A DNA stretch of 64,000 nucleotides, taken from NCBI GenBank assembly GCA_963662315.1, contig OY759353.1:3040001-3104000 (forward strand). Reading direction: 5' to 3'. The notes beneath the pieces are model-generated. The model was not told where the DNA came from, did not search any database, and saw nothing but the letters and a program-made list of their open reading frames with translations. The first letter of the stretch is position 1. Each line of letters opens with the position of its first letter. Below, piece by piece: positions 9,730 through 53,979 of the stretch. Position numbers and translations under genes: made by a program. The stretch is from Geopsychrobacteraceae bacterium (GTDB taxonomy: Bacteria > Desulfobacterota > Desulfuromonadia > Desulfuromonadales > Geopsychrobacteraceae).

Positions 9730-10605
9730 TTAAATTGAAAGTCCCAACAATTCAAGAATACGTTCAAGTTCCTCCTGGGTACCAAAGTTAATTTCTATTT
9801 TCCCCCCTTTCCCCTTTCTGGCTAATTTGACCTGCGTAGCAAAATGTTGTTTCAAGCATTGTTCCAATTCCAGAGCATCTGGATCCAGTCGGGGCGTTGC
9901 CGGTTCAGGCTTAATCCTGTTTGATTCTGTAAAGTTTTTGATCTTTTTGATTAATTTTTCGGTCTCTCGAACTGACAGTTTTTTTTGAATGACCTGATCA
10001 GCAGCTTCCAATATGTCTTCTTCATTTTCAAGAGATAATAAAGCCCTCGCATGCCCCATGGTTAATGTTGCACTCTGCAAATGGTCTTTAATCTTTTCTG
10101 GTAGCCTTAATAACCGAAGAGAATTGGCGACGGTGGAACGTTCTTTTCCAACTCTTTTTGCAACTTCTTCCTGAACCAGATCAAAATTTTCCATCAGATA
10201 TCGATAAGCACTTGCTTCTTCCAATGGATTTAGGTCTTCCCTTTGAATATTTTCTATCAGGGCCATTTCAAGCGCCCAATCTTCACTAACATCTTGAATA
10301 ACCACAGGAACTCGATCAAGCGATGCTTTTTGTGCTGCACGCCAACGTCTTTCTCCTGCGATTATTTGGTAATATTCTCCTTGCTGTCTGACGACCAAAG
10401 GTTGAATGATACCTTTTTCTTTAATGGAAGAGACGAGTTCCGCCATCTTTTTATCATCAAAGGTCTTGCGCGGCTGTTGACTGTGGGGCCTTAGTTCTTC
10501 AATTGGGCATAAAAAGTATTTTTTACCCCCTTCTTGCGCCGCGGAGCTCAACAGGGCTCCTATTCCTTTTCCTAACGCTGGTCTTTTGGGTTTTGTCATC
10601 GTCAT
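9730..10605 (-). CDS. parB: Chromosome partitioning protein ParB/Spo0J
   Basis: LGKGIGALL, QPRKTF, IIAGERRWRA (GxRR), ENIQREDLNPLEEA, HTH. Confidence 0.97.
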   Translation of the reverse strand: MTMTKPKRPALGKGIGALLSSAAQEGGKKYFLCPIEELRPHSQQPRKTFDDKKMAELVSSIKEKGIIQPLVVRQQGEYYQIIAGERRWRAAQKASLDRVPVVIQDVSEDWALEMALIENIQREDLNPLEEASAYRYLMENFDLVQEEVAKRVGKERSTVANSLRLLRLPEKIKDHLQSATLTMGHARALLSLENEEDILEAADQVIQKKLSVRETEKLIKKIKNFTESNRIKPEPATPRLDPDALELEQCLKQHFATQVKLARKGKGGKIEINFGTQEELERILELLGLSI

Positions 10606-10610
10606 TATAT

Positions 10611-11372
10611 TTACGCTCCCGCCACGATTTCCTTGGCTAAATCCATGTAAGCTTTTGCTCCCTTTGACCCAATATCATACATGAGAACAGGTAATCCATA
10701 GCTCGGGGCTTCCGACAATCGAACATTTCTTGGAATTACGGATTCAAAAACTTTATCTCCAAAATGATTTCTCATTTCGTCACTGACCTGGTGGCAGAGA
10801 TTATTTCGACCATCGAACATGGTCAATAATATCCCGTCGATTTTTAGTCCAGGGTTTAACTCCTGTTGAACAATGCGTATGGTCTGCATTAATTGGCCCA
10901 GCCCCTCCATTGCGTAAAATTCGCATTGTAATGGAACCAATACAGTATGAGCTGCAGTTAATGCATTGACAGTCAGCAAACCTAAAGAAGGAGGACAATC
11001 AATAATAATAAAATCATATGCCTCAGAAACTTCGTCTACAGCTTTTTTTAACTTTTTTTCTCTATCCGAATTGCTGATCAACTCTATTTCTGCACCGATC
11101 AGATTGGTATTTGAAGGGACGACTGTGAGATAACCAAGTTCTGTCGGCTGCATAACCTCTTGAATTGAGGATTCTTCCAACAAAACATCATAAATCGTTG
11201 ATAATACTGCTGTTTTATCAATACCTATGCCACTGCAGGCATTAGCCTGAGGATCCATATCAATGAGCAATGTATTTTTTTCAGCTGCGGCAAGAGAGGC
11301 GGCTAAGTTTACCGAAGTCGTAGTTTTACCTACCCCACCCTTCTGGTTGGCTATGGCAATAATTTTGGCCAT
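10611..11372 (-). CDS. parA: Chromosome partitioning ATPase ParA/Soj
   Basis: ANQKGGVGKTT, DMDPQAN, IIDCPPSLG, IPRNVRLSEAPS. ATG at 11372 (MAKII). Confidence 0.97.
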   Translation of the reverse strand: MAKIIAIANQKGGVGKTTTSVNLAASLAAAEKNTLLIDMDPQANACSGIGIDKTAVLSTIYDVLLEESSIQEVMQPTELGYLTVVPSNTNLIGAEIELISNSDREKKLKKAVDEVSEAYDFIIIDCPPSLGLLTVNALTAAHTVLVPLQCEFYAMEGLGQLMQTIRIVQQELNPGLKIDGILLTMFDGRNNLCHQVSDEMRNHFGDKVFESVIPRNVRLSEAPSYGLPVLMYDIGSKGAKAYMDLAKEIVAGA

Positions 11373-17881: not shown

Positions 17882-19243
17882 ATGAAAAATCTCTGGAAAA
17901 AGGTTCTCAATAGATTACCGGACAAAATTAGCACACAAAACATCAAAACCTGGATAGAACCGATAAAACCAGTGAATATGGATAAATCCATCTTAAAAAT
18001 TGAAGTTCCAAATAAGTTTATAAAAGACTGGATTAAAGACAATTATCGGCAAATTATCTGCGAAACCATATTTGAGATAACTGGGGAAAAAATCAAGCTG
18101 GACATAGATATAAACAAAACCATAAAAAAACAGTCAGAGACAGAAACAATAACACTGGCTGTAGACCTACCGGAAAAAATTGAAAAATCAAAAAAAGAAA
18201 CGCCAAAAGAGGAAATGGAGTTTTCCAATTTAAACCCATCCTACACTTTTGAGAGTTTTGTATCTGGGCCTTCAAACCAATTCGCGCATGCTGCCGCACT
18301 AGCAGTATCCAATAATCCGGCTACGACCTATAACCCATTATTTATATATGGCGGTGTCGGTTTAGGAAAAACCCATATTATCCATGCAATAGGAAATGAA
18401 ATATTAAAAAACAAAAGTTCAATAAGGGTATGTTATTACTCCTCAGAAAAATTTACCAATGAACTTATCAATTCACTACGCCATGCGAAAATGGATGATT
18501 TTAGAAATAAATTCAGATCTATAGATATTTTACTCATAGATGATATTCAATTTATTGCAGGTAAAAAAAGTACTCAAGAAGAGTTTTTCCATACGTTTAA
18601 TGCCCTATACGAATCTCACAAACAGATAGTTGTCACTTCAGATAAATTTCCTAAAGAGATACCAGATTTAGAAGAACGTTTAAGATCACGATTTGAATGG
18701 GGTTTAATTGCAGATATACAATCTCCAGACACAGAAACAAAGCAAGCCATTCTTAAAATGAAAGCAGATCAAAATAAAATAGATCTTCCCGAAGATGTTT
18801 CATACTTTTTAGCAAATTCAATAACAAGTAATGTTAGAGAATTAGAGGGGTATCTTATCAGAGTTGGAGCATATGCAAGCTTAACATCAACCCCTATTAA
18901 CCTAGATATGGCTAAAAATATCCTCAAAGACATTATCGTCGAAAACAGTCGTGAAATAACCATAGAAAAAATTCAAAAAACGGTAGCAGAACACTTTCAG
19001 ATCAAAACATCCGAATTAAAATCATCAAAACGATTAAAAAACCTTGTTTTTCCAAGACAAATTGCCATGTTCATCTGCCGCAAAATGACGGATCTCTCAT
19101 ATCCAGAAATCGGTGTAAAATTTGGCGGAAAAGACCATTCAACAATAATCCACGCAATAAAAAAGATAGAAAAAAAGATTGATGAAGATATGCATACCCG
19201 TATGATGATCGAAAAGCTTATGGAAAAATTGAACACAATCTAG
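17882..19243 (+). CDS. dnaA: Chromosomal replication initiator DnaA
   Basis: YNPLFIYGGVGLGKTH, LLIDDIQF, RLRSRFEWGL, FGGKDHSTIIHA. Confidence 0.99.
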   Translation: MKNLWKKVLNRLPDKISTQNIKTWIEPIKPVNMDKSILKIEVPNKFIKDWIKDNYRQIICETIFEITGEKIKLDIDINKTIKKQSETETITLAVDLPEKIEKSKKETPKEEMEFSNLNPSYTFESFVSGPSNQFAHAAALAVSNNPATTYNPLFIYGGVGLGKTHIIHAIGNEILKNKSSIRVCYYSSEKFTNELINSLRHAKMDDFRNKFRSIDILLIDDIQFIAGKKSTQEEFFHTFNALYESHKQIVVTSDKFPKEIPDLEERLRSRFEWGLIADIQSPDTETKQAILKMKADQNKIDLPEDVSYFLANSITSNVRELEGYLIRVGAYASLTSTPINLDMAKNILKDIIVENSREITIEKIQKTVAEHFQIKTSELKSSKRLKNLVFPRQIAMFICRKMTDLSYPEIGVKFGGKDHSTIIHAIKKIEKKIDEDMHTRMMIEKLMEKLNTI

Positions 19244-19463
19244 TGGATATCTCCCGAAATTAGGGGATAAAACCAGATTAATGAAAAAGATTAACAGACA
19301 GCTTCAAAACCAGAGCAACTTATCCACAGCCGATTTTTATTAATTTTTCCTGTTAAATTAGATATATAGATACTTTTAAACATATAAACAAGCACTACTA
19401 TTACTACTAAAATATTTATAACTAATATATATAGTATACAGTTACCTGTTGACGGAGGATTTT
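19244..19463. other. oriC: Replication origin oriC (dnaA-dnaN intergenic unwinding region)
   Basis: Perfect DnaA box TTATCCACA at 19320-19328, degenerate boxes at 19242-19250 and 19262-19270, DnaA-trio run CTA CTA TTA CTA CTA at 19395-19409, then an AT-rich tract. Gene orientation flips from minus to plus at rpmH/dnaA. Confidence 0.88.
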
Positions 19464-20573
19464 ATGAATTTTGAAATTAGCAAAGAAGACTTTTTGAAAG
19501 CCCTTACCAAAGTCCAGGGAATTATTGAAAAACGCCACACTATACCGATTCTGGCCAATGTATTATTAGAAACTCGAAACAATCAGCTTCATATCACAGC
19601 GACAGACCTTGAGATCGGTTTAAAAGCGAAATTTCCCTGTTCTGTAGATGAAGATGGTAAAGTTACAGTTTCAGCTAAGAAGTTATTTGAAATTTTAAAA
19701 GAATTACCAAATTCTACGGTACAATTCAGTTCAAAGAATAATTTCTGGGTAGAAATAAAATGTGAAAAATCCATATTTAATCTAGTTGGACTCTCACCTG
19801 AAGATTTTCCAAGATTTCCTGAAATTACAGAAAATTTAACTTCTTTCGAAAGTTTAAGTTTTATTGAGATGATTGATAAAACAATATTTTCTGTATCTAA
19901 TGACGAAACAAAATTTAACTTAACTGGAATATTTATAAAATATGATTCTAGTATAAATGAAATTACTTTCGTATCTACAGATGGACATAGACTTTCATTA
20001 ATATCAAAAAAAATATCAACTAATCTCTCTGATAGATTTTCAAATGGTTTCATACTTCCTAAAAAAGGTATTTTTGAAATACGAAAATTAATTGATAATA
20101 CAGATGAAAATATTGAAGTTGGAATAATTGACAACAACTTTGTTATTAAGTACCAAGATACTATACTTGTGATGCGAATGGTGGATGGAGATTTTCCTGA
20201 TTATAAGCGTGTGATTCCTGAAAAATCAGAAAATTATGCACTTATAAATAAAGATGAATTTTTACATGCGCTAAAAAGGATATCAGTTCTTTCTAGTGAA
20301 AAATCCAAGGGAGTTAAAATTAATGTAAAAAAAGACACATTAATTTTAAGCTCAAGTAATCCTGAATTGGGTGACGCTAAAGAAGAAATTGATACAGTTT
20401 ATAATGCAGCTGAAATTTCAATTGGTTTTAACGCAAAGTATATTATAGATATCCTTCAGGTTATAAAGTCTACTAATATCATTTTTTATTTAAAGGATAA
20501 TATTTCCCCAGGACGTATAAGCCCAGAAGATGATGAAAATCATATCTCAGTTATTATGCCAATGAGATTATAA
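19464..20573 (+). CDS. dnaN: DNA polymerase III beta sliding clamp
   Basis: IPILANVL, ATDLE, STDGHRL, GDFPDYKRVIP, IMPMRL; GGAGG RBS before ATG 19464. Confidence 0.98.
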   Translation: MNFEISKEDFLKALTKVQGIIEKRHTIPILANVLLETRNNQLHITATDLEIGLKAKFPCSVDEDGKVTVSAKKLFEILKELPNSTVQFSSKNNFWVEIKCEKSIFNLVGLSPEDFPRFPEITENLTSFESLSFIEMIDKTIFSVSNDETKFNLTGIFIKYDSSINEITFVSTDGHRLSLISKKISTNLSDRFSNGFILPKKGIFEIRKLIDNTDENIEVGIIDNNFVIKYQDTILVMRMVDGDFPDYKRVIPEKSENYALINKDEFLHALKRISVLSSEKSKGVKINVKKDTLILSSSNPELGDAKEEIDTVYNAAEISIGFNAKYIIDILQVIKSTNIIFYLKDNISPGRISPEDDENHISVIMPMRL

Positions 20574-20578
20574 TTTTA

Positions 20579-24044
<3,466 letters not shown>

Positions 24045-44637: not shown

Positions 44638-44990
44638 GTTTATGCCGGTTATAACCGCCCAGCCCGTTTTGATTACAATCTGGTGGTCATTGGGGCCGGC
44701 AGTGCCGGGCAGGTCAGTGACTATGACAGTGGTCTCTTCGCTGGTGAAGGGATCTTGGTCTTAACCGGCCGCAAAGCTCTTGAATTCAGGACAGTTGATG
44801 GTCAGAAGCAACTGCTGTGTCCGGTTGGCTCTGCATAGGTGGTTCCTTTTGATCTGATTCTGGTTGCTGTTGGCAGGAAGGCAAATGTCTCAGGTTTCGG
44901 CCTTGCAGGATTGAGGAATTTGCAAGCGGAATCCTTCACACTGACCCGTTTCTGCGGTCTAATTTCCCCAATATCTTATGGCCGGAGAAG
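44638..44990 (+). pseudogene. Remnant of an FAD-dependent pyridine nucleotide-disulfide oxidoreductase domain formerly fused to TVP38
   Basis: Same frame after TAA reads VYAGYNRPARFDYNLVVIGAGSAG (Rossmann motif), then jumps to ...*VVPFDLILVAVGRKANVSGFGL (stop at 44836-44838) and, in a shifted frame, DPFLRSNFPNI. Confidence 0.85.
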
Positions 44991-45050
44991 CAGATAGTTT
45001 TACGGCTGATGGAGCCCTAGCTGGATTTCAGGTTAAGGCCCACAGCAAAA

Positions 45051-47258
45051 TCAGCGCTTTTTATTGCGTTGCGGACCGGCCGTTTTGGTTTTCCGTTTTT
45101 TGGAACGCTGCGCCAGGATAACCCGTTTTTCAGCCAGTTTAATCTGTTTGTCCTGGCAACCCTCGCTGCCTTTGCGGGCATGGGGGTTGACCAAATGATA
45201 CTGGCCGTCAGATTGCAGTTCCCAGGCATTGACCCGATCTTCCAGCTGCAGGTCAAAAATTTCCCGTAACTGTTCGCGTATGGTTTTGCTTGCTACCGGT
45301 ACCAGGGTTTCTACCCGGTATTCAAGGTTGCGGCGCATGGCGTCGGCAGAACCAAGCAGAAATTCCTCGTTGCCACCATTTTTAAAATAATAGATGCGGG
45401 CATGTTCAAGAAACCGCCCCAGAATCGAGACCACCCGGATGTTGTCCGATAGCCCTTCGATACCTGGCCTGATCCGGCAGCTGTCCCGAATCAACAATTC
45501 CACCTTGACTCCATTTTGCGAAGCGCGATACAGCGCTTTAACGATATCAGGATCCTCGAGGGCATTCATTTTGAAGCGGATCAGACCCGGATTTTTACTG
45601 CTATGAACCTCGATCTCCCGGGCAATTTTGGCCAGCAACGCATTTTTTAACTGCTTCGGGGCCGGCAGCAGAGTGTTGTAGTGACGTTTCGGAGTAAAAC
45701 CGGTGGTCAGGTAATTGAACAGCTCGGTGGCGTCACGGCCGACATCCTTGTTGTATATCAGTAAACCGAGGTCACTGTAGAGGCGCGCGGTGACCGGGTG
45801 GTAGTTGCCGGTGCCGATATGTACATAGCGCCGCAACCCTTTAAAGTCCTGGCGAATAACCAGGATTACCTTGGCGTGGGTTTTCAGACCGACGACACCA
45901 TAGGTGACATGAATGCCGGCTTCTTCCATCTTGGTGGCCAGTTTGATGTTCGCCTGTTCGTTAAAGCTGGCCTGTAGCTCAACCACAACCGCCACTTGCT
46001 TACCGTTGCGGGCGGCCTGGATCAGATAATTGATAATGCCGCTGGTTGGGTCGGTGCGGTAAAGTGTCATTTTTATCCCCAGCACCTTGGGATCTGTCGC
46101 AGCTTCATGGAGAAAGCGTTCCACTGATGAAGAAAATGATTCATAGGGATGCTGGAGCAGCACTTCTTTTTGGTCACGAATGGTATGAAAGATGCTGCGG
46201 TCAGCCGGTAACAAGGGGTTGTCAATGGGATGATGGGGCTTGTCTTTAAGCTCGGGAAGATCGAGGCGATAGATTTCCCACAGGTCACGTAGACCGAGCA
46301 GATCTTCAGAGACAAAGACATCTGACTCTTCATCGAGTCCCAGTTCTGAAGCCAGCCGACCTCGGTAAAGCGGATCAATGTGGGGCAGGACCTGGAAGCG
46401 CACGATCGGCGCAACCCGGCGATGTTCCAGAGTTGATTCAATCAACTCCAGCAGGTCATCGGCATGTTCCTCGTCTTTGCTGGTGTTGGCATTGCGGGTC
46501 ACGCGGAATAACTCGCAGCGGACGATTTCCATCTCGGGAAAGAGCAGATCGAGATTGTTCTGCAGGATATCTTCAAGACGGATAAAACGATAGCCGCTCC
46601 CCGGCAGTCTTTGAAAACGATTGGCCCCCGCTCCCACAGGAACCTTGACCCGGGCCAGTTCCGTTGCCGATTCGCCCGGGTAGCGCAGTACGACCAGCAG
46701 GTTCAGGGATAGGTTGGAAATGAACGGAAACGGATGAGCCGGGTCAACGGACTGAGGTGTAACCAGGGGGAAAATATTATCGTAAAAATGATTCCGAATC
46801 TGGGCCTTTTCTTCGCCAGTCAGCTGGGTAAAATCCAGGAATTCGATCCCCTGCTTTTTAAGGGCATGAAAAACGTCGCGCGTGACTTGCTCACGACGTG
46901 GCTGTATCCGGTTGATTTCAGCAAAGCATTCTTCCAGTTGCTGGCGTGGTGTCCGTCCATCAACGGTTATATCGCTGACACCAGTGGCCATCTGCTGTTT
47001 CAGGCCGCCGATCCGTTTCATAATGAATTCATCAACGTTGGAACCGTAGATGGCCAGAAACTTGACCCGTTCCAGAAGGGGTATTTTCGTATTGGAGGCT
47101 TGATGAAGAACGCGTTCATTGAACTTCAGCCAGCTCAATTCCCGGTTAAGGAACAGTTTCGGGTCATTCAGATCGTTATCTTTTGCATATTGAGACACCG
47201 GCTGTTCCGGGTGTTTTTCAGCTTTATCCTGAAGTGAAAATTGTTTAGCTGCTTCCAT
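45051..47258 (-). CDS. ppk1: Polyphosphate kinase 1
   Basis: NRELSWLKFNERV, DPAHPFPFISN, HPYESF, KMTLYR, KTHAK (phospho-His), GTGNY, RFLEHARI. Confidence 0.97.
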   Translation of the reverse strand: MEAAKQFSLQDKAEKHPEQPVSQYAKDNDLNDPKLFLNRELSWLKFNERVLHQASNTKIPLLERVKFLAIYGSNVDEFIMKRIGGLKQQMATGVSDITVDGRTPRQQLEECFAEINRIQPRREQVTRDVFHALKKQGIEFLDFTQLTGEEKAQIRNHFYDNIFPLVTPQSVDPAHPFPFISNLSLNLLVVLRYPGESATELARVKVPVGAGANRFQRLPGSGYRFIRLEDILQNNLDLLFPEMEIVRCELFRVTRNANTSKDEEHADDLLELIESTLEHRRVAPIVRFQVLPHIDPLYRGRLASELGLDEESDVFVSEDLLGLRDLWEIYRLDLPELKDKPHHPIDNPLLPADRSIFHTIRDQKEVLLQHPYESFSSSVERFLHEAATDPKVLGIKMTLYRTDPTSGIINYLIQAARNGKQVAVVVELQASFNEQANIKLATKMEEAGIHVTYGVVGLKTHAKVILVIRQDFKGLRRYVHIGTGNYHPVTARLYSDLGLLIYNKDVGRDATELFNYLTTGFTPKRHYNTLLPAPKQLKNALLAKIAREIEVHSSKNPGLIRFKMNALEDPDIVKALYRASQNGVKVELLIRDSCRIRPGIEGLSDNIRVVSILGRFLEHARIYYFKNGGNEEFLLGSADAMRRNLEYRVETLVPVASKTIREQLREIFDLQLEDRVNAWELQSDGQYHLVNPHARKGSEGCQDKQIKLAEKRVILAQRSKKRKTKTAGPQRNKKR

Positions 47259-47324
47259 CAATGCCTGTTCTCCTGATGTTTTTTATATGGCGTTTTTTAA
47301 ATCAACGAACTTTACGCGGGAATT

Positions 47325-47546: not shown

Positions 47547-47683
47547 TTTGTCCTCGCTAAATTGTTTTCACTGGTTATTATTGGTATATGTAAATTACCT
47601 TAAAAAGATAACTCAATTAGTAGTGATTGACAAGGCTGGTACGGCTCAGAAAAGAGTCACACAGCAATAAAGTGGAATTTGCC

Positions 47684-49246
47684 ATGAAAAAGACGAAGCA
47701 AAGACGTTTGGCCGCTATTGATATCGGAACCAACTCCATTCGATGCATCGTGGTCGAAACTGACGAACTGGAGGGTTTCCGGGTTCTGGATGATGAGAAA
47801 GCAGCCGTTCGTTTAGGGGAAGGGTTGAACGAGACCGGTTATATCTCGCAGCACGCCATTGAGCGTGCTCTGGAAGCTTTGCAGCGCATGGCAAAAATCA
47901 GCGCCGGTCTTAATGCCGAAGTGGCTGCCGTCGTTGCGACCAGCGCTGTTCGCAAGGCCGCCAATGGCAGTGATTTTGTTGCCGATGTCAAGCATAAGAC
48001 GGGGCTGGAAATATCTGTCATCTCCGGTGAGCAGGAAGCTGACCTGGCCATGTTGAGTGTGCGTCATAACTTCGATATGGATCAGCAGCGTTTTGGTATG
48101 GCCGATATCGGTGGTGGCAGTGTTGAAATTGTCACGGCCAGCGGCCGTCATGTTGAGGATGTCTGCTCTTTGGAATTGGGAGCAGTTTTTCTGACCGAAA
48201 AGTTTATCCATAGTGATCCACCGCTGGAAGAGCAGTTAAAGGCCCTGCGAAAATATGTGCGAAAAGCTTTAAAGCGGCATAAGGTCGGGGATGGTCTGCC
48301 GCTGAACTGCCTGGTTGGCTCGGGGGGAACCATGACCAATATCGGCAGCATGATTATGGCCATGCGTGCCGAAAAATACGGTACGGTTCATCGCTACGAA
48401 GTGCTGCATTCTGAGATCATTCATCTGCTGGCCATGCTGTCACGGCGCAGTCATAAGGAGCGTCAGGCCACGCCAGGGCTTAATCCTGAACGGGCTGACA
48501 TTATCCTGGCCGGCATGATTCTTACGGACGAAATGATGCGGCGTATGCGGACCAACCAGTTACGCATCAACGCTCAGGGGATTCGCGAAGGATTGATCCT
48601 GCGCAGTCTCCAGGAGCGCAACCTGATTCCTGATCCTGGCGATGGTCGTGACTGGCGGGATTCTATTTTTGAGTTTGCGCGGTCCTGCCGTTTCGATGAG
48701 CAGCATTCGGTCCAGGTCAGTCGCCTGGCCGTAAAAATCTTTGGTGTCGTTGCGGAACCGTATGGTTTGAACGCCCGCCATCAACAGTTTCTCGAAGCAG
48801 CGGCGCTGCTGCATGATATCGGATATTTCATCAGCTATGATGATCACCACAAGCATTCCTACCACCTTATCCGCCACGCCAATCTGTTTGGTTTTACCCC
48901 GCGTGAACGTGAGCTGATCGCCAATCTGGCCCGTTACCACCGCAAGGGCAAGCCGAAAAAACATCATGAGAATTATGCACCCTTAAGCCCGGATGACCAA
49001 CTGCTGGTGCGGCGCTTGGGTGGAGTATTGCGGCTAGCCGATGGTCTTGACCGGCGACGTAACAGCCAGGTGGCCGATATTGATTGTCGGCTTGAGCAGG
49101 GCGTATTTTCCATTCAGCTGCAAGGAGCGAGTGATCTGTCCGTGGAAGTGTATGGGGCGCGGAGTAAAGGTAACCTGTTTGAGGCAGCTTTTGATTGCAG
49201 TCTTGATGTCACGATAGAGGAGCTTTTGTGCGACGCGTTATCCTGA
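47684..49246 (+). CDS. ppx: Exopolyphosphatase / pppGpp phosphatase (Ppx/GppA) with HD domain
   Basis: AAIDIGTNSIR, ATSAVR, ISGEQEA, DIGGGSVE, GSGGT, RADII, GIREG, LLHDIG. ATG at 47684. Confidence 0.95.
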   Translation: MKKTKQRRLAAIDIGTNSIRCIVVETDELEGFRVLDDEKAAVRLGEGLNETGYISQHAIERALEALQRMAKISAGLNAEVAAVVATSAVRKAANGSDFVADVKHKTGLEISVISGEQEADLAMLSVRHNFDMDQQRFGMADIGGGSVEIVTASGRHVEDVCSLELGAVFLTEKFIHSDPPLEEQLKALRKYVRKALKRHKVGDGLPLNCLVGSGGTMTNIGSMIMAMRAEKYGTVHRYEVLHSEIIHLLAMLSRRSHKERQATPGLNPERADIILAGMILTDEMMRRMRTNQLRINAQGIREGLILRSLQERNLIPDPGDGRDWRDSIFEFARSCRFDEQHSVQVSRLAVKIFGVVAEPYGLNARHQQFLEAAALLHDIGYFISYDDHHKHSYHLIRHANLFGFTPRERELIANLARYHRKGKPKKHHENYAPLSPDDQLLVRRLGGVLRLADGLDRRRNSQVADIDCRLEQGVFSIQLQGASDLSVEVYGARSKGNLFEAAFDCSLDVTIEELLCDALS

Positions 49247-49728
49247 TTCGCCATGCCAAGTCAGATTGGGGCAATCCCGATCTAAATGATTTTGAGCGTC
49301 CGCTCAACGGGCGGGGTAAAAAAGCGGCACCTCTGATGGGGCAGTATCTGGCTTCAGGACCCTGGATTCCCGATTACCTGGCCAGTAGCCCGGCCAAACG
49401 TGCCCGCAAAACAGCTCGGTTGATAGCTGCTGAGCTTGACTTCGACAAAGGAGCGATTGTTTACCAGGATAGCATTTATGATGCCAGGGTTGCTGTTTTA
49501 CAGAATGTCCTGAAGGGGCTCCCCGATGTTGCCTGCCCGGCCCTGATCGGGCACAACCCCGGCCTGAGTGAGCTGGGCCAGTGGCTGTGCCCGGATGCTC
49601 CCGGGTGGCTGAAAACTGCGGCCGTGCTGATCCTGCAGTTGGAGATTGAAAGCTGGTCGGAAGTACGGCCCGGCTGCGCGACCCTGCTGGATTACAGTTA
49701 TCCTAAAAAGGTTATGGCTGAGCAATAG
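49228..49728 (+). CDS. sixA: SixA-family phosphohistidine phosphatase
   Basis: LIRHAKS, DFERPL..RG, SSPAKRARKT, IGHNP; overlaps the ppx stop. Confidence 0.9.
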   Translation: MRRVILIRHAKSDWGNPDLNDFERPLNGRGKKAAPLMGQYLASGPWIPDYLASSPAKRARKTARLIAAELDFDKGAIVYQDSIYDARVAVLQNVLKGLPDVACPALIGHNPGLSELGQWLCPDAPGWLKTAAVLILQLEIESWSEVRPGCATLLDYSYPKKVMAEQ

Positions 49729-49782: not shown

Positions 49783-50484
49783 TCAATGCAGGTCTGAACC
49801 TGCGACACGATTGCCTTGCTCATCAATCAAGTCAACCGTGGTGTCCGGCCAGCCTGGGGGGCCGCTCGGTCCCTGGTAGCGCACAAACAGACCATCGTTC
49901 TGGCGCAGCCAGTAGTGACAACTCCAAAAGACTGCCTTAAAACCAGGCAGTTGAATTTTGAGTTTGATGACCGGGGTTAGTTGTCCCTCACGTTCCAGCT
50001 CTTCTTCACCTTCCGGAATGACTTTCAGCTTGTGAACATCAAGGGTATCCGGGCGTACGCTCCAGAATTCTTTGGTGGCGATATTCGGGTTGGTAAATTG
50101 CCGCAATGAGACAGACAGTGCCTGGTACCAGGGGGCTGCGTCAATCGCAACGGATTTATTCAGTTTCTTCCCTTTAAAGGTGCCGCGCATCAGCAGATCA
50201 TTGCCTCGGCGGGTCACCAGCAAATCGGTATTGGCGGCAGGATCTTTGACACTCCAGGAGCGGGTTGCCAACTCCCGGTTGATGTGGGTGACGTCACGTT
50301 CCTGATCAATATCGGTAATCAGTCTGATTTCATCACCACGCTCCAATCGCCAGTTAAACAGCTGGACTGAGGGACCGGTCGCTTTCCGGTAAAGGTGTTG
50401 TTCCGAGGTCATAGCGTTTCCTTGTGCCGGTATCATGAACAGGCCACACAACAGAAAGGCACAACTGCTATTAAGAATAGACAT
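49783..50484 (-). CDS. Exported hypothetical protein
   Basis: 233-aa ORF with AGGAG RBS, N-terminal signal-peptide-like segment, beta-rich composition. Confidence 0.8.
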   Translation of the reverse strand: MSILNSSCAFLLCGLFMIPAQGNAMTSEQHLYRKATGPSVQLFNWRLERGDEIRLITDIDQERDVTHINRELATRSWSVKDPAANTDLLVTRRGNDLLMRGTFKGKKLNKSVAIDAAPWYQALSVSLRQFTNPNIATKEFWSVRPDTLDVHKLKVIPEGEEELEREGQLTPVIKLKIQLPGFKAVFWSCHYWLRQNDGLFVRYQGPSGPPGWPDTTVDLIDEQGNRVAGSDLH

Positions 50485-50548: not shown

Positions 50549-50605
50549 AGGGAGATTTTCTTTCGTTTCCGGGGAACAAGGTATTGAAAAGTTAGTTCTT
50601 AAAGG

Positions 50606-50625
50606 ATATACAATGTATATACATT
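50606..50625. promoter_or_regulatory. Overlapping palindromes (candidate operator) upstream of the CHAD operon
   Basis: ATATACA-A-TGTATAT (50606-50620) and AATGTATATACATT (50612-50625), overlapping TACAAT. Confidence 0.45.
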
Positions 50626-50662
50626 TTGATTTCCTTTTTAACTCTTTCAAATTACTGTAATT

Positions 50663-52192
50663 ATGCTGATACATAGTGACTGGCGCATGACAACCCTGGT
50701 GACAATGACCGATCTGGAACAACTGATGCCAGCCGGATTTCACCTTGAACTCAAAGAAAAACAACACGTCACTTACACTGTTCTGGACGACTATGACTGG
50801 TCTGTCTGGAGTGCCGGACTGGTACTGTTTCGTAGCGGTGCCCGCACGTTATGTCTGCAACGCCCTGAAGGTGAACCTCTTGTTAATGAAGCTGTTGCAG
50901 ACAGTGTACGCTTCTGGTGGGAACTGCCTGCCGGGGAACTGGCTGCTCAGTTACAGAAACTGATTGGCTTAAGGGCGTTTACCGCAAAGTTCAGTGTCTG
51001 TGGCGATGATCAGCATATTGCTGTTTTGAATGATGATGACAAGACTGTTGCGCGCCTACAGTTGATACGCTTAGGCCAGGCCGAACAGGCTGAGAGTCAG
51101 CTGCTGAGCCTTCAGGCATTACGTGGTTATGAAGAGGAAACGCAGCTCATCACTGCTGCGTTGCAACGTTTGCCTCATGTGGACGTGCCACCTTTAATTC
51201 TTAGGCAGCAGTTACTGCAGGTCGGCTTAACGGTAGAAAAACCACTATCCAAACCGGACTTCAGGCTTAAGCCGGATGAATTTGTCGAACCGGCCGTAAC
51301 CAGGATGATTGCCCAGTTATTTGCTCTTGCCAGAGAACAGGAGGCAGGGCTGGTTGCGGATGTCGACAGCGAATTTGTCCATCAGTACCGGGTCAATATT
51401 CGCAAGGCACGCTCGCTTGTCAGCCTGTTTAAGAGGATCTACTCCCCTGCGCGTTATCGGCAGTTGAATGAGGCGCTGAAAGATCTCGGCAAACGGACCA
51501 ATGAACTGCGAGATCTGGATGTTTTTTTAATCGATTGCAGAGTCTATCCGGAGATGCTGCCGGACAATCTGCGTCCCGGGCTAAATCAGCTGGTCGAGCG
51601 TCTGCGACGCCGACGGAGAACAGTATTCCGCAAGGTAAGAAACCAACTGGTGGGCCACGATTATGACGAGCAGGTCATAACCTTGCAATCTGCTTTGCAA
51701 CAGGAGCCTGATTATGCAACCGCGCGGGCTCATATGCCGCTGAAACAACTGGTCTGCCATAAAATTAACAAACAGTATCGTGCCATTGTCAAAGATGGAG
51801 CTCTGATTGGGGATGATACTCCTGATCAGGCAGTCCATGCTCTGCGTATCAAGTGTAAAAAGTTACGTTATCTGCTTGAGCTGTTTGCCGAACTGTTCTG
51901 TAACACAGCAATTAAACCGTTGATCAAACAGCTGAAACTACTGCAGGACAATCTGGGACAGTTTAATGATTTTGTCGTTCAGCGCGAATTTCTCGGTCGT
52001 CTGGCACATCGCCGCCAGATAAGTGACGAACAGTTGGCAACTATCCATGGGCTGCAGGCGGTACTGTTTGATCGTCAGCGTCAGGAACGCAGTCAGGTGG
52101 TCGCCAATATCAGCAAATTCAGTGATGCAGAGGTTTTTGGCGCTTTCAGCCGAGTCTTTGCCTGTACGACTCAGGAGCCTGATCAGGAATGA
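50663..52192 (+). CDS. CHAD-domain (polyphosphate-binding) protein
   Basis: VHQYRVNIRKARS, LGKRTNELRDLDVF, VHALRIKCKKLRYLLE, LQDNLGQFND; start could be 50687. Confidence 0.92.
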   Translation: MLIHSDWRMTTLVTMTDLEQLMPAGFHLELKEKQHVTYTVLDDYDWSVWSAGLVLFRSGARTLCLQRPEGEPLVNEAVADSVRFWWELPAGELAAQLQKLIGLRAFTAKFSVCGDDQHIAVLNDDDKTVARLQLIRLGQAEQAESQLLSLQALRGYEEETQLITAALQRLPHVDVPPLILRQQLLQVGLTVEKPLSKPDFRLKPDEFVEPAVTRMIAQLFALAREQEAGLVADVDSEFVHQYRVNIRKARSLVSLFKRIYSPARYRQLNEALKDLGKRTNELRDLDVFLIDCRVYPEMLPDNLRPGLNQLVERLRRRRRTVFRKVRNQLVGHDYDEQVITLQSALQQEPDYATARAHMPLKQLVCHKINKQYRAIVKDGALIGDDTPDQAVHALRIKCKKLRYLLELFAELFCNTAIKPLIKQLKLLQDNLGQFNDFVVQREFLGRLAHRRQISDEQLATIHGLQAVLFDRQRQERSQVVANISKFSDAEVFGAFSRVFACTTQEPDQE

Positions 52193-52941
52193 ACATCATT
52201 GCCTTTTATTCCATCAAGGGGGGCGTTGGGAAAACCGCTTCGGCGGTTAATATCGCTTATTGGGCCGCTCAATCAGGTTATCGGACCCTGCTGCTTGATC
52301 TTGATTCCCAAGGGGCATCGTCCTTTTATTTCCGCGTTCAGTCGGTTACTAGCAAGAATTGGGGCAAGCGCTTTTTTAAAGCTTATGAGCAGCTTTTCAA
52401 GCAGATTAAAGCCAGTGATTTTGATCGTCTCGATATTATTCCGGCCCACCTGAGTTTTCGTAATTTTGACGTACTGCTGCAGGAACTGGGCGCGCGTAAG
52501 AAGCTGCTGCGTCAGATGTTGACAAGGTTGGATAAGGATTACGATCTGGTGATTCTTGACTGCCCGCCAACCATCAGTCAACTGGCGGAAAATATTTTTA
52601 ACGCCGCCGATCTGGTCCTGGTACCGGTGATACCAACAACCCTGTCACAACGGACCTTTTGTCAGTTACGCGAGTTTTTCAAGGAGGAAGATTACAGCCG
52701 CAAAAAGCTGATTCCGTTTTTTACCATGGTTGATAGCAGAAAGCAGTTGCACAAAGAAACAGCCCTGGCCATGCGCAAAGACTACAAGCGCTTCCTGAGA
52801 AATGCCATCCCCTTTTCCACAGATGTCGAAAAGATGGGGATCAACCGTTCTCCAATTGATCTCTATGCGCCGACCCGTCAGGCCAACCGGGCTTATCAGG
52901 CATTATGGCAGGAAATTGCGACACTGCTCAGGGAAGGATAA
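52189..52941 (+). CDS. Orphan ParA/MinD-family ATPase
   Basis: Deviant Walker A SIKGGVGKT, LLDLDSQG, VILDCPP, LVPVIP; 4-bp overlap with the CHAD gene. Confidence 0.93.
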   Translation: MNIIAFYSIKGGVGKTASAVNIAYWAAQSGYRTLLLDLDSQGASSFYFRVQSVTSKNWGKRFFKAYEQLFKQIKASDFDRLDIIPAHLSFRNFDVLLQELGARKKLLRQMLTRLDKDYDLVILDCPPTISQLAENIFNAADLVLVPVIPTTLSQRTFCQLREFFKEEDYSRKKLIPFFTMVDSRKQLHKETALAMRKDYKRFLRNAIPFSTDVEKMGINRSPIDLYAPTRQANRAYQALWQEIATLLREG

Positions 52942-52943
52942 AC

Positions 52944-53429
52944 ATGGAACAGCTGGAAATCGAGCGGAAATTTGTTCTAAAAGAGTTACCGGAAACTATA
53001 TTGGCTGGCGTCTGCGGGCAGTGTATCCGCCAGGGATACCTGCTCAGCGGTGATAGTGAATTGCGTATTCGCGAGCGGGGCGGAAAGTGTACCATGACCG
53101 TCAAACGTGGCACCGGACTTAAGCGTCAGGAGCAGGAATGCGTTATCTCTGCGCAGCAGTTTGACATGCTCTGGCCCTTGACGGAAGGACAACGCATCGA
53201 CAAGGTGCGCTATGTCGTTCCCTGCGTTGGGCTTAATTACGAAATAGATGTTTTCAAAGGTGACCTGGCACCCCTGAAGATACTTGAAATTGAATTTGAT
53301 AGTGTGGCCGCGAGTCGGGAATTCAACGTTCCTGACTTTGTGGCACGTGAAGTGACAGAAGATAAGGCTTATAAAAATGCTGCTCTGGCATTAATGGGCC
53401 TTCCAGTCGGGAGCTTACTTAATGGGTGA
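52944..53429 (+). CDS. CYTH-domain (triphosphate tunnel metalloenzyme) protein
   Basis: EIERKF (ExExK), IRQGYL, LRIR, KVRY, EIDVF, EIEF, YKN. ATG at 52944. Confidence 0.93.
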   Translation: MEQLEIERKFVLKELPETILAGVCGQCIRQGYLLSGDSELRIRERGGKCTMTVKRGTGLKRQEQECVISAQQFDMLWPLTEGQRIDKVRYVVPCVGLNYEIDVFKGDLAPLKILEIEFDSVAASREFNVPDFVAREVTEDKAYKNAALALMGLPVGSLLNG

Positions 53430-53607
53430 TGACAAAAAAGGGAAGAAAAAAAGCAAGAAAGACAGCCAATTACTGATCCGGATCAACAGTGATGAACGTG
53501 ACGATTTTATTTCTTTGTGCGAAGAGCTTGATACCAGCGCTGCCAGGGAAATTCGTCGCTTTATCAGGCGGTTTATTCAGGAGCACACTAACCAGAGTGA
53601 AGCGTAG
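53422..53607 (+). CDS. Small predicted ribbon-helix-helix protein with lysine-rich N-terminal tail
   Basis: KKGKKKSKK tail, strand QLLIRI, helix ERDDFISLCEEL, turn DTS, helix AAREIRRFIRRF; overlaps the CYTH stop. Confidence 0.75.
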   Translation: MGDDKKGKKKSKKDSQLLIRINSDERDDFISLCEELDTSAAREIRRFIRRFIQEHTNQSEA

Positions 53608-53616
53608 GAGGGTTGT

Positions 53617-53979
53617 ATGGCAACACCATTGGAGGATGTCACAGGGATTGGTCCTGCTACGGCAAAAGTGCTGGCGGAACACGGAATAGCCAGTGCGGAA
53701 GATCTGGCCGCTAGACAGGTCGAAGAAATTGCGCTTGTCCACGGTTTCAGCACGATTCGTGCCGCACAGGTTGTTGCCGCAGCCAGAGACTTGTTTGTGC
53801 TTAAGCCGGTTGTCGCAGAGACAGAGCCGTCCGCACCGGGAAAAGTGAAAAAGGCGAACAAGGGTGTGGGTAAAAAGCCCGAAAAAACAGACAAGAAAGA
53901 CAAGAAAAAGGGGCACAGGGACAAGAAGAAAGACGCTAAGAAAAAAGGCAAAAAAAAGGCTAAAAAGTCAAAAAAATAA
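53617..53979 (+). CDS. Helix-hairpin-helix protein with histone-like lysine-rich C-terminal tail
   Basis: LEDVTGIGPATAKVLAEHGI (HhH), second HhH-like LVHGFSTIRA, tail KKDKKKGHRDKKKDAKKKGKKKAKKSKK; AGGAGG RBS. Confidence 0.87.
   Translation: MATPLEDVTGIGPATAKVLAEHGIASAEDLAARQVEEIALVHGFSTIRAAQVVAAARDLFVLKPVVAETEPSAPGKVKKANKGVGKKPEKTDKKDKKKGHRDKKKDAKKKGKKKAKKSKK

Follow-up and report, generated by a model that had tools for sequence, protein, structure and literature searches.

A CHAD–ParA gene pair as a candidate organiser of polyphosphate granules in a Geopsychrobacteraceae bacterium

Many bacteria space their polyphosphate (polyP) granules evenly or partition them, and the operon described here raises the question of whether a ParA-type ATPase could contribute to this. 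The operon occupies positions 50663–53979 of a stretch of 64,000 nucleotides (the window) from a Geopsychrobacteraceae bacterium (GenBank assembly GCA_963662315.1, contig OY759353.1, positions 3,040,001 to 3,104,000 of the forward strand), whose 4.71-Mb genome, assembled as one contig, contains a single CHAD gene. This gene is followed in the operon by an orphan parA. A first-pass annotation had proposed that the ATPase spaces or segregates polyP granules on the nucleoid, with CHAD as the cargo adaptor and small Lys-rich proteins as activator or DNA tether. In the available portions of the literature, the mechanism of granule positioning is called undefined in a 2026 paper (PMC13556221), its ATP-dependence is listed as unknown in a 2025 review (PMC13052382), and the mechanism is left open (PMC13556221, PMC13052382, PMC11894788, PMC9239181) apart from AlgP of P. 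aeruginosa, which is the only known polyP-spacing factor (PMC9239181, PMC13052382). A literature search, with most subscription journals outside it, returned no paper that proposes or tests a ParA for polyP granules, and the word polyphosphate is missing from the available text of two further papers, supplements outside scope (PMC11407121, PMC10241942). Our analysis reduces the system to two genes, CHAD and parA, and by analogy with known positioning ATPases we give about an even chance to the idea that they form an ATP-driven organiser of polyP granule position or number.

Five co-directional open reading frames (ORFs) were confirmed in the operon, with junctions of -4, +2, -8, and +9 bp and with Pfam matches, in agreement with the tight packing first described:

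50663..52192, plus strand: CHAD protein, core gene 1 (509 amino acids; PF05235, E 1e-55)
52189..52941, plus strand: orphan ATPase with a ParA/Soj fold, core gene 2 (250 amino acids; AAA_31, E 9e-35; 4-bp overlap with the CHAD gene)
52944..53429, plus strand: stand-alone CYTH/TTM protein, accessory (161 amino acids; PF01928, E 1.5e-5)
53422..53607, plus strand: ribbon-helix-helix (RHH) protein, accessory (61 amino acids; PF19839, E 0.003, under the curated cut-off)
53617..53979, plus strand: HhH-domain protein with a Lys-rich tail (HhH-Lys), accessory (120 amino acids; PF14520, E 4e-12; isoelectric point 10.1)

Neighbourhoods were examined around the best 80 of 278 relatives of the ParA in named genomes (30 non-Bacteroidota and 50 Bacteroidota loci), as well as in samples of 200 other genomes of the same phylum, 200 other Bacteroidota, and 400 other Pseudomonadota, all of which include close kin, so that their counts are not independent. 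A CHAD gene lies directly upstream of parA in all 30 non-Bacteroidota loci, which span Desulfuromonadales, Oceanospirillaceae, Chromatiales, Victivallales, and Calditrichia. Across the 201 genomes of the phylum, a close-relative profile separates the ParA subfamily (>260 bits) from generic ParA proteins (at most 144 bits); nine of the 200 other genomes hold the subfamily, and CHAD is adjacent in eight of them (seven in tandem, one convergent). This adjacency is more than chance, because none of 20 generic parA loci has a CHAD gene beside it (1.5-kb flanks). It is also specific to one type of CHAD: among the 25 other CHAD proteins of the phylum, 8/11 of those with an N-terminal domain like that of the window protein adjoin ParA, compared with 0/14 of those without. 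The polyP kinase gene ppk1 was found in 7/9 genomes with the ParA subfamily versus 13/191 without it. In Bacteroidota, 48 of the 200 genomes carry the ParA family, with CHAD directly upstream in 39; most of these pair genomes (2–3 Mb, close kin) are probably those of green sulfur bacteria. Of 44 pairs, 26 show a 4-bp overlap between CHAD and parA, and genes of polyP turnover stand beside the pair in the 30 CHAD-linked loci (ppk1 in 8, ppk2 in 5, ppx in 5, SixA in 6, CYTH in 8, and NUDIX in 17). A SixA-like gene adjoins the pair in six of the nine loci of the phylum, a Paracoccus plasmid bears the order RHH-CHAD-ParA-CYTH-NUDIX, and two loci (L007 and L028) show the minimal pair with no adjoining enzyme.

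The trees of the two proteins are congruent. For 47 pairs, the CHAD tree reproduces 19 of the 22 ParA splits that have good support, and the distances are correlated (r = 0.86). The window ParA groups with those of Oceanospirillum and Marinospirillum (support 0.995), which suggests that CHAD and ParA were transferred as a unit. The family as a whole is set off from 20 generic ParA proteins with 100% SH-aLRT support in a quick tree, and within it a subclade of 80 rows (support 0.94) comprises 79 CHAD-linked or fused members; the genome of the remaining row has a long CHAD elsewhere, beside ppk1.

Gene fusions provide a further link to polyP. Longer members of the ParA family number 234, and among the 120 that were listed and classified, 80 carry a CYTH-like domain at the C-terminus, with the ExExK motif intact in nine, many of the rest being partial; in the ESM Atlas, this fused domain matches hypothetical clusters only, one with CYTH in 10% of its members. 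Fifteen of the 120 are fused to SBP_bac_3, and 20 bear CHAD. Nineteen of these 20, all with CHAD preceding ParA, were rejected because they look like products of a frameshift between the two overlapping genes, most with a truncated CHAD and Arg/Gly-rich off-frame linkers. One ParA-N-domain-CHAD fusion is intact (two records, 99.9% identical). Two fusions to a sucrose-phosphatase-like domain (PF05116) were also seen in the family. A predicted complex of two ParA chains with residues 3–498 of CHAD scored 0.60, compared with 0.00 for three controls, and is rated weak, as passes this low were given in calibration by 18/157 solved complexes and by both mismatches that passed (2/215). Between runs, 82% or more of the contacts are shared, the partner pLDDT is at least 81, and the interface was not returned. 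For ParA and CHAD, the structure prediction suggested by the first-pass annotation separated the pair from its controls, with weak support. The proposed connection of CHAD–ParA with polyP holds up when adjacency, congruent trees, co-occurrence with ppk1, and ParA-CYTH fusions are taken together with this weakly supported complex, and CHAD fits as the partner on the cargo side.

In an AlphaFold2 (AF2) model with a pLDDT of 91.8, the CHAD protein consists of an N-domain with a CYTH/TTM fold (residues ~1–190) and a pore-type CHAD domain (~205–498). The latter matches the polyP-bound CHAD of Chlorobium tepidum (CtCHAD; 6QVA) with a Foldseek TM score of 0.92 on the target, and it has both the pair of four-helix bundles and the basic residues in the pore that are expected of a polyP-binding CHAD. 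The polyP-contact residues of CtCHAD that were mutated, according to the available part of that study, are H253, R256, R260, R296, and R418-Y419 (PMC6537752). They align with H240, R243, R247, R283, and R402-Y403 of the window protein; among 45 CHAD rows, R243, R247, R283, R402, and Y403 are invariant, and H240 is kept in at least 90%. The ParA-adjacent CHAD at locus L275 matches the CtCHAD chain with an E value of 1.6e-77. The N-domain resembles triphosphate-tunnel folds (for example 7NS8, E 5.5e-5 in Foldseek), and its homology with CYTH rests on fold only, because hhalign comparison with profiles of fused or free CYTH domains gave probabilities of at most 8% (2–8% for the fused ones). The ExExK motif is missing from 45/45 N-domains, which keep D42, F44, W46, F84, R104, K127, and G155-Y156; the N-domain may therefore be a pseudo-enzyme with a conserved surface.

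The orphan ATPase has the intact deviant Walker A motif that had been claimed for it (KGGVGKT, with signature lysine K10), and it also shows the switch I Asp, the switch II DCPP, and the fold of the ParA/MinD superfamily. Its AF2 model (pLDDT 87) is closest to Soj/ParA structures (2BEK, 8RAY, 6IUB; TM 0.81–0.84), and all of the 85 CHAD-linked ParA rows have K10, K15, T16, D37, D39, and D124. The surface of these 85 rows was compared with that of the genome's own ParA and of 20 generic ParA proteins, with Soj residues R189 and R218 mapped onto the DxR and PRNVR motifs. As given in the available part of the source, these two basic residues of the C-terminal part serve to bind DNA non-specifically (PMC3778016). 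The R189-equivalent is kept as Arg (R184) in 61% of the CHAD-linked rows. The R218-equivalent (F209) is Y/F in 86% of them versus R in 100% of generic proteins, and the next basic site (D212), 100% basic in generic proteins, is D/E in 93%. The CHAD-linked proteins have a median isoelectric point of 9.3 versus 6.2 for generic ParA, and near-invariant new basic residues are found at R49, K56, R91, R155, K185 (kept in 93%), H188, and R220. Nucleoid binding is not assured, because one of the two DNA-binding arginines is gone and a different conserved basic surface stands in its place; an action "on the nucleoid", as first proposed, is doubtful. A MinD-type C-terminal membrane-targeting helix is absent, since the model stops at core helix 231–249 and the C-termini of relatives lie at most a few residues away. 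The residues F48/R49 occur in 98–99% of CHAD-linked ParA proteins and in 27/27 sampled fused ones, in 24% of other unlinked members, and in 0–6% of a long-branch clade of 36 members (L123–L176). On this pattern, we infer that the F48/R49 loop may contact the CYTH-fold partner.

These features can be assembled into a mechanism in which CHAD and ParA would be the working unit. The CHAD domain would coat polyP granules, as shown for the CHAD family, with its binding residues conserved here, and the dead CYTH-like N-domain would offer a docking site for the ATPase. By analogy with McdAB, ParA might then cycle between an ATP-bound dimer on a polyanionic matrix and a release triggered at the granule, and the cycle would thereby set the location or number of granules. 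Either polyP itself or DNA could be the matrix, and DNA would then be held by a non-canonical surface. The CYTH protein, replaced elsewhere by NUDIX, SixA, PPK1, or PPK2, would be a co-transcribed polyP enzyme, RHH would repress the operon from a palindrome at 50607–50619, and HhH-Lys would be a lineage-specific extra. A bolder version, rather unlikely in our view, holds that the subfamily has swapped the Soj DNA surface for the new basic one and patterns on polyP itself, with the dead CYTH as activator; hydrolysis of ATP would then drive the spacing, splitting, or partitioning of polyP condensates.

If an organiser of this kind exists, the ParA/MinD family would gain a new cargo, a new type of partner (a pseudo-CYTH), and perhaps a new matrix; patterning on polyP would add a third ParA matrix besides the nucleoid and the membrane. 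The pair is a two-gene, directly testable candidate kept across several bacterial phyla; it occurs in the cultured genera Oceanospirillum, Marinospirillum, and Paracoccus, and is close to a CHAD with a solved polyP complex.

The remaining three genes are accessory add-ons to this conserved core. The CYTH protein has an intact ExExK motif (EIERK at residues 5–9) and is homologous to the solved TTM NE1496 (2FBL/3TYP, E 2e-33), as expected of an active enzyme; from its sequence and the activity of NE1496, it is a probable short-chain (tri)polyphosphatase. Among the 30 CHAD-linked loci, besides the CYTH and NUDIX genes counted above, six contain an RHH of the window type, always accompanied by HhH (6), and 12 an unrelated RHH. 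No CYTH, NUDIX, HhH, or RHH gene of either family was found in the flanks of the 39 Bacteroidota pairs (1.5 kb for 29 of them).

The RHH protein was followed in metagenomes, where 214 relatives were detected and the best 80 examined (L290–L369; many on short contigs). None of these 80 loci is near ParA or CHAD. A palindrome lies at most 200 bp upstream of 58/77 ParA-free RHH genes, compared with 8/1959 control windows and 24/1540 shuffles. The window holds a corresponding site:

50599..50627, no strand assigned: predicted RHH operator (palindromic core 50607–50619, 44–56 bp 5' of the CHAD start)

The exact core is unique in the genome, and an operator matrix built on 42 sites, taken only from RHH loci without CHAD or ParA, ranks the window site first genome-wide (35.6 bits versus 20.8 for the next). 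Upstream of seven CHAD operons with the window-type RHH the matrix gives 11.6–34.1, upstream of one CHAD operon that lost RHH 33.9, and in the other 17 tested at most 7.3. Locus L003 (position 5425) retains the operator upstream of CHAD, and RHH and HhH are missing from it; an RHH search in five genomes, that of L003 included, found none, and this search had no positive control. The next-best site in the window's genome (G000:C1:2771281) is weak and may be due to chance; the gene downstream of it is presumably TetR-like. A different 8-bp palindrome lies upstream in 12/13 loci of the second RHH family (11 of them Oceanospirillum-like kin), so that each family tracks its own palindrome. Most simply, RHH would be an autorepressor of the CHAD operon acting on the palindrome at 50607–50619, in which case a single promoter, probably overlapped by the predicted operator, would serve the first four genes. 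A scan for sigma-70 promoters and terminators gave counts no higher than shuffles. The operator is a smaller, firm result, pointing to the cognate site of an uncharacterised, widespread repressor family. Single RHH loci adjoin ppk1 (L310), sixA (L316), and ppk2 (L325).

The tail of the HhH protein is rich in Lys (26 of the last 58 residues), its ESM Atlas matches are unnamed, and it is possibly a DNA- or polyP-binding accessory. In 14 of the 80 RHH loci, none of them with ParA, a related RHH occurs with a Lys-rich coiled-coil/C-terminal HhH protein; because of this recurrence, RHH and HhH look like a separate module appended to the CHAD operon. The coiled-coil and HhH architecture is loosely like that of AlgP/PhaF. 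At one locus (L175), an HhH-Lys gene lies upstream of a CHAD-less parA, the lone hint of a direct HhH–ParA link. RHH was rejected as a ParA activator or centromere binder, since it follows its operator and not ParA (none of the 80 metagenome loci is near ParA or CHAD); the idea that Lys-rich small proteins activate or tether the ATPase is not supported, RHH and HhH being absent from 39/39 Bacteroidota pairs as well.

Several observations weigh against a granule organiser. According to the available part of the 2026 paper, granule spacing in S. elongatus is independent of its only ParA (PMC13556221). The altered DNA-binding surface described above counts on the same side, as do the non-independent counts, the lack of a conserved basic N-terminal activator peptide in residues 1–12 of CHAD (best R, 17/45 rows), and two genomes that carry an N-domain CHAD with no ParA. 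The neighbourhood survey called for by the first-pass annotation was divided: the pairing in the phylum and in the Bacteroidota sample stood, but among Pseudomonadota 68/400 genomes carry the family (70 copies), with CHAD adjacent in only seven copies of six genomes. Of the 70 copies, 59 have no tested polyP gene within 1.5–2.5 kb (six loci with a short flank); four have ppk2 directly upstream. All ten tested Pseudomonadota genomes of the former kind have a short CHAD, lacking the N-domain, elsewhere. The 36-member clade usually lies between rnfH/truA-like and cysM-like genes; its median isoelectric point is 9.7, and short CHAD genes occur elsewhere in 5/5 genomes tested. CHAD adjoins none of the 50 Bacteroidota loci among the best 80 of 278, which are mostly labelled Chitinophagaceae and have the order uvrB-parA-esterase-polA; of five such genomes, three carry a short CHAD at another locus and two gave no CHAD match, as did 4/5 other tested Bacteroidota genomes with an unlinked ParA. 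On a Marinobacter plasmid, a CHAD-less family member (L115:6001-6747) is divergent from a cluster including phbB. CHAD-linked ParA proteins do not form one clean clade (six changes in a quick tree), and within the family only a subclade and some outlying branches are linked to polyP.

Three other explanations have to be set against the organiser. The leading one, somewhat unlikely in our judgement, is that ParA, bound to the surface of the granule or to the CHAD/CYTH-like domain, gates by its ATP state the access of PPK, PPX, CYTH, or NUDIX, setting the amount or chain length of polyP and not its location. The varying combinations of turnover enzymes around the 30 loci fit this, together with the nine fusions whose CYTH retains ExExK, the four loci with ppk2 in the place of CHAD, and the loss of the canonical arginine; however, the nearest folds are positioning ATPases, L007 and L028 have no enzyme alongside, and the region of the R189-equivalent is still basic (R184, K185). 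It is quite improbable that the protein has a general ParA job independent of polyP, for another cargo or in the cell cycle, and in certain lineages was recruited to polyP operons, where it is merely co-regulated with CHAD. Most Pseudomonadota and Chitinophagaceae-labelled members do sit among housekeeping genes, CHAD is missing from some genomes with unlinked ParA, and the SBP_bac_3 fusions also speak for such a role, but the 4-bp overlaps, the congruence of the trees, the N-domain specificity, the CYTH fusions, the way F48/R49 follows the partner, and the complex score exceed what co-regulation would need.

Type Ib partition systems (ParFG, delta/omega) combine a short ParA with an RHH partner, which binds the promoter of their operon. 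A DNA-partition cassette of this type, with the palindrome as parS and CHAD and CYTH as passengers, can be given hardly any weight and is largely refuted. It would account for the presence, next to a short ParA, of an RHH whose N-terminal tail is basic, for the second RHH family filling the same role in 12/30 loci and in Paracoccus, and for the weak ParG match of the Paracoccus RHH (E 0.047). Yet the repeat search found a single operator site and no centromere-like array, the window-type RHH is ParA-free in all 80 metagenome loci examined, the 39 Bacteroidota pairs are RHH-free within the flanks read, each RHH follows its own palindrome, and the locus is chromosomal, in a genome with a separate parABS.

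The surroundings of the operon in the window contain the following features:

45051..47261, minus strand: ppk1 polyphosphate kinase (four PP_kinase Pfam domains)
47627..49246, plus strand: ppx/gppA exopolyphosphatase (PF02541, E 6e-65)
49228..49728, plus strand: SixA-like histidine phosphatase (PF00300; TIGR00249 under the cut-off)
49783..50484, minus strand: gene with no Pfam match between the sixA-like gene and the CHAD operon, divergent from the latter (233 amino acids)
9730..10605: chromosomal parB, apart from the orphan parA operon
10611..11372: chromosomal parA, also apart (24% identical to the orphan ParA)
13967: parS-like site, also apart

The operon had been placed next to ppk1/ppx/sixA; all three are near, but the minus-strand gene, whose position is conserved in loci L001–L005, lies between. 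Because it separates them, the CHAD operon has its own promoter region. The separate parAB/parS had been correctly recognised. At 18000–22000, the cumulative GC skew turns and GC falls to 27–32%, with parAB just upstream; this is probably the replication origin, which would place the polyP cluster ~30 kb away. Short ORF pieces at 44683–44997, after the gene of a 226-amino-acid membrane protein, read like remnants of a pyridine nucleotide-disulfide oxidoreductase.

Compared with type Ib partition systems, the RHH here is dispensable and exchangeable, with one operator on a chromosome. In Acidithiobacillus, the order folD-ppk-parA-CHAD is conserved and noted with no interpretation in the available part of the source (PMC10892726); there too parA stands beside CHAD and ppk, a likeness of gene order. 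As far as they are described in the available sources, AlgP and the granule–nucleoid tethers PhaF, PhaM, and PhaH have a basic DNA-binding tail that HhH-Lys loosely resembles, but each is a single protein with no ATPase, likened here by description. CtCHAD shares the pore-type CHAD and its polyP contacts, whereas the available text on it describes no ATPase partner or role for an N-domain (PMC6537752). With Soj/ParA, the orphan ATPase shares the fold and all nucleotide-binding motifs; it differs in its 24–28% identity, its lack of ParB and parS, the replaced R218-equivalent, and its higher isoelectric point. McdA/McdB, in the available parts of their descriptions, is likewise an orphan short ParA that is encoded next to cargo genes and has a partner binding the cargo (PMC11407121, PMC13052382), an arrangement found here for the CHAD-linked subclade only. 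The cargo in the present case would be a polyP granule with no protein shell, the partner is a 509-amino-acid pseudo-CYTH-CHAD protein, the Soj-type arginine pair is incomplete, and in sequence there is a weak match to Cyanothece McdA (E 6e-6). As CHAD lacks the conserved basic N-terminal activator peptide and ParA keeps only part of the DNA-binding residues, the CHAD–ParA pair is not classed as a member of McdAB, although it would work like it.

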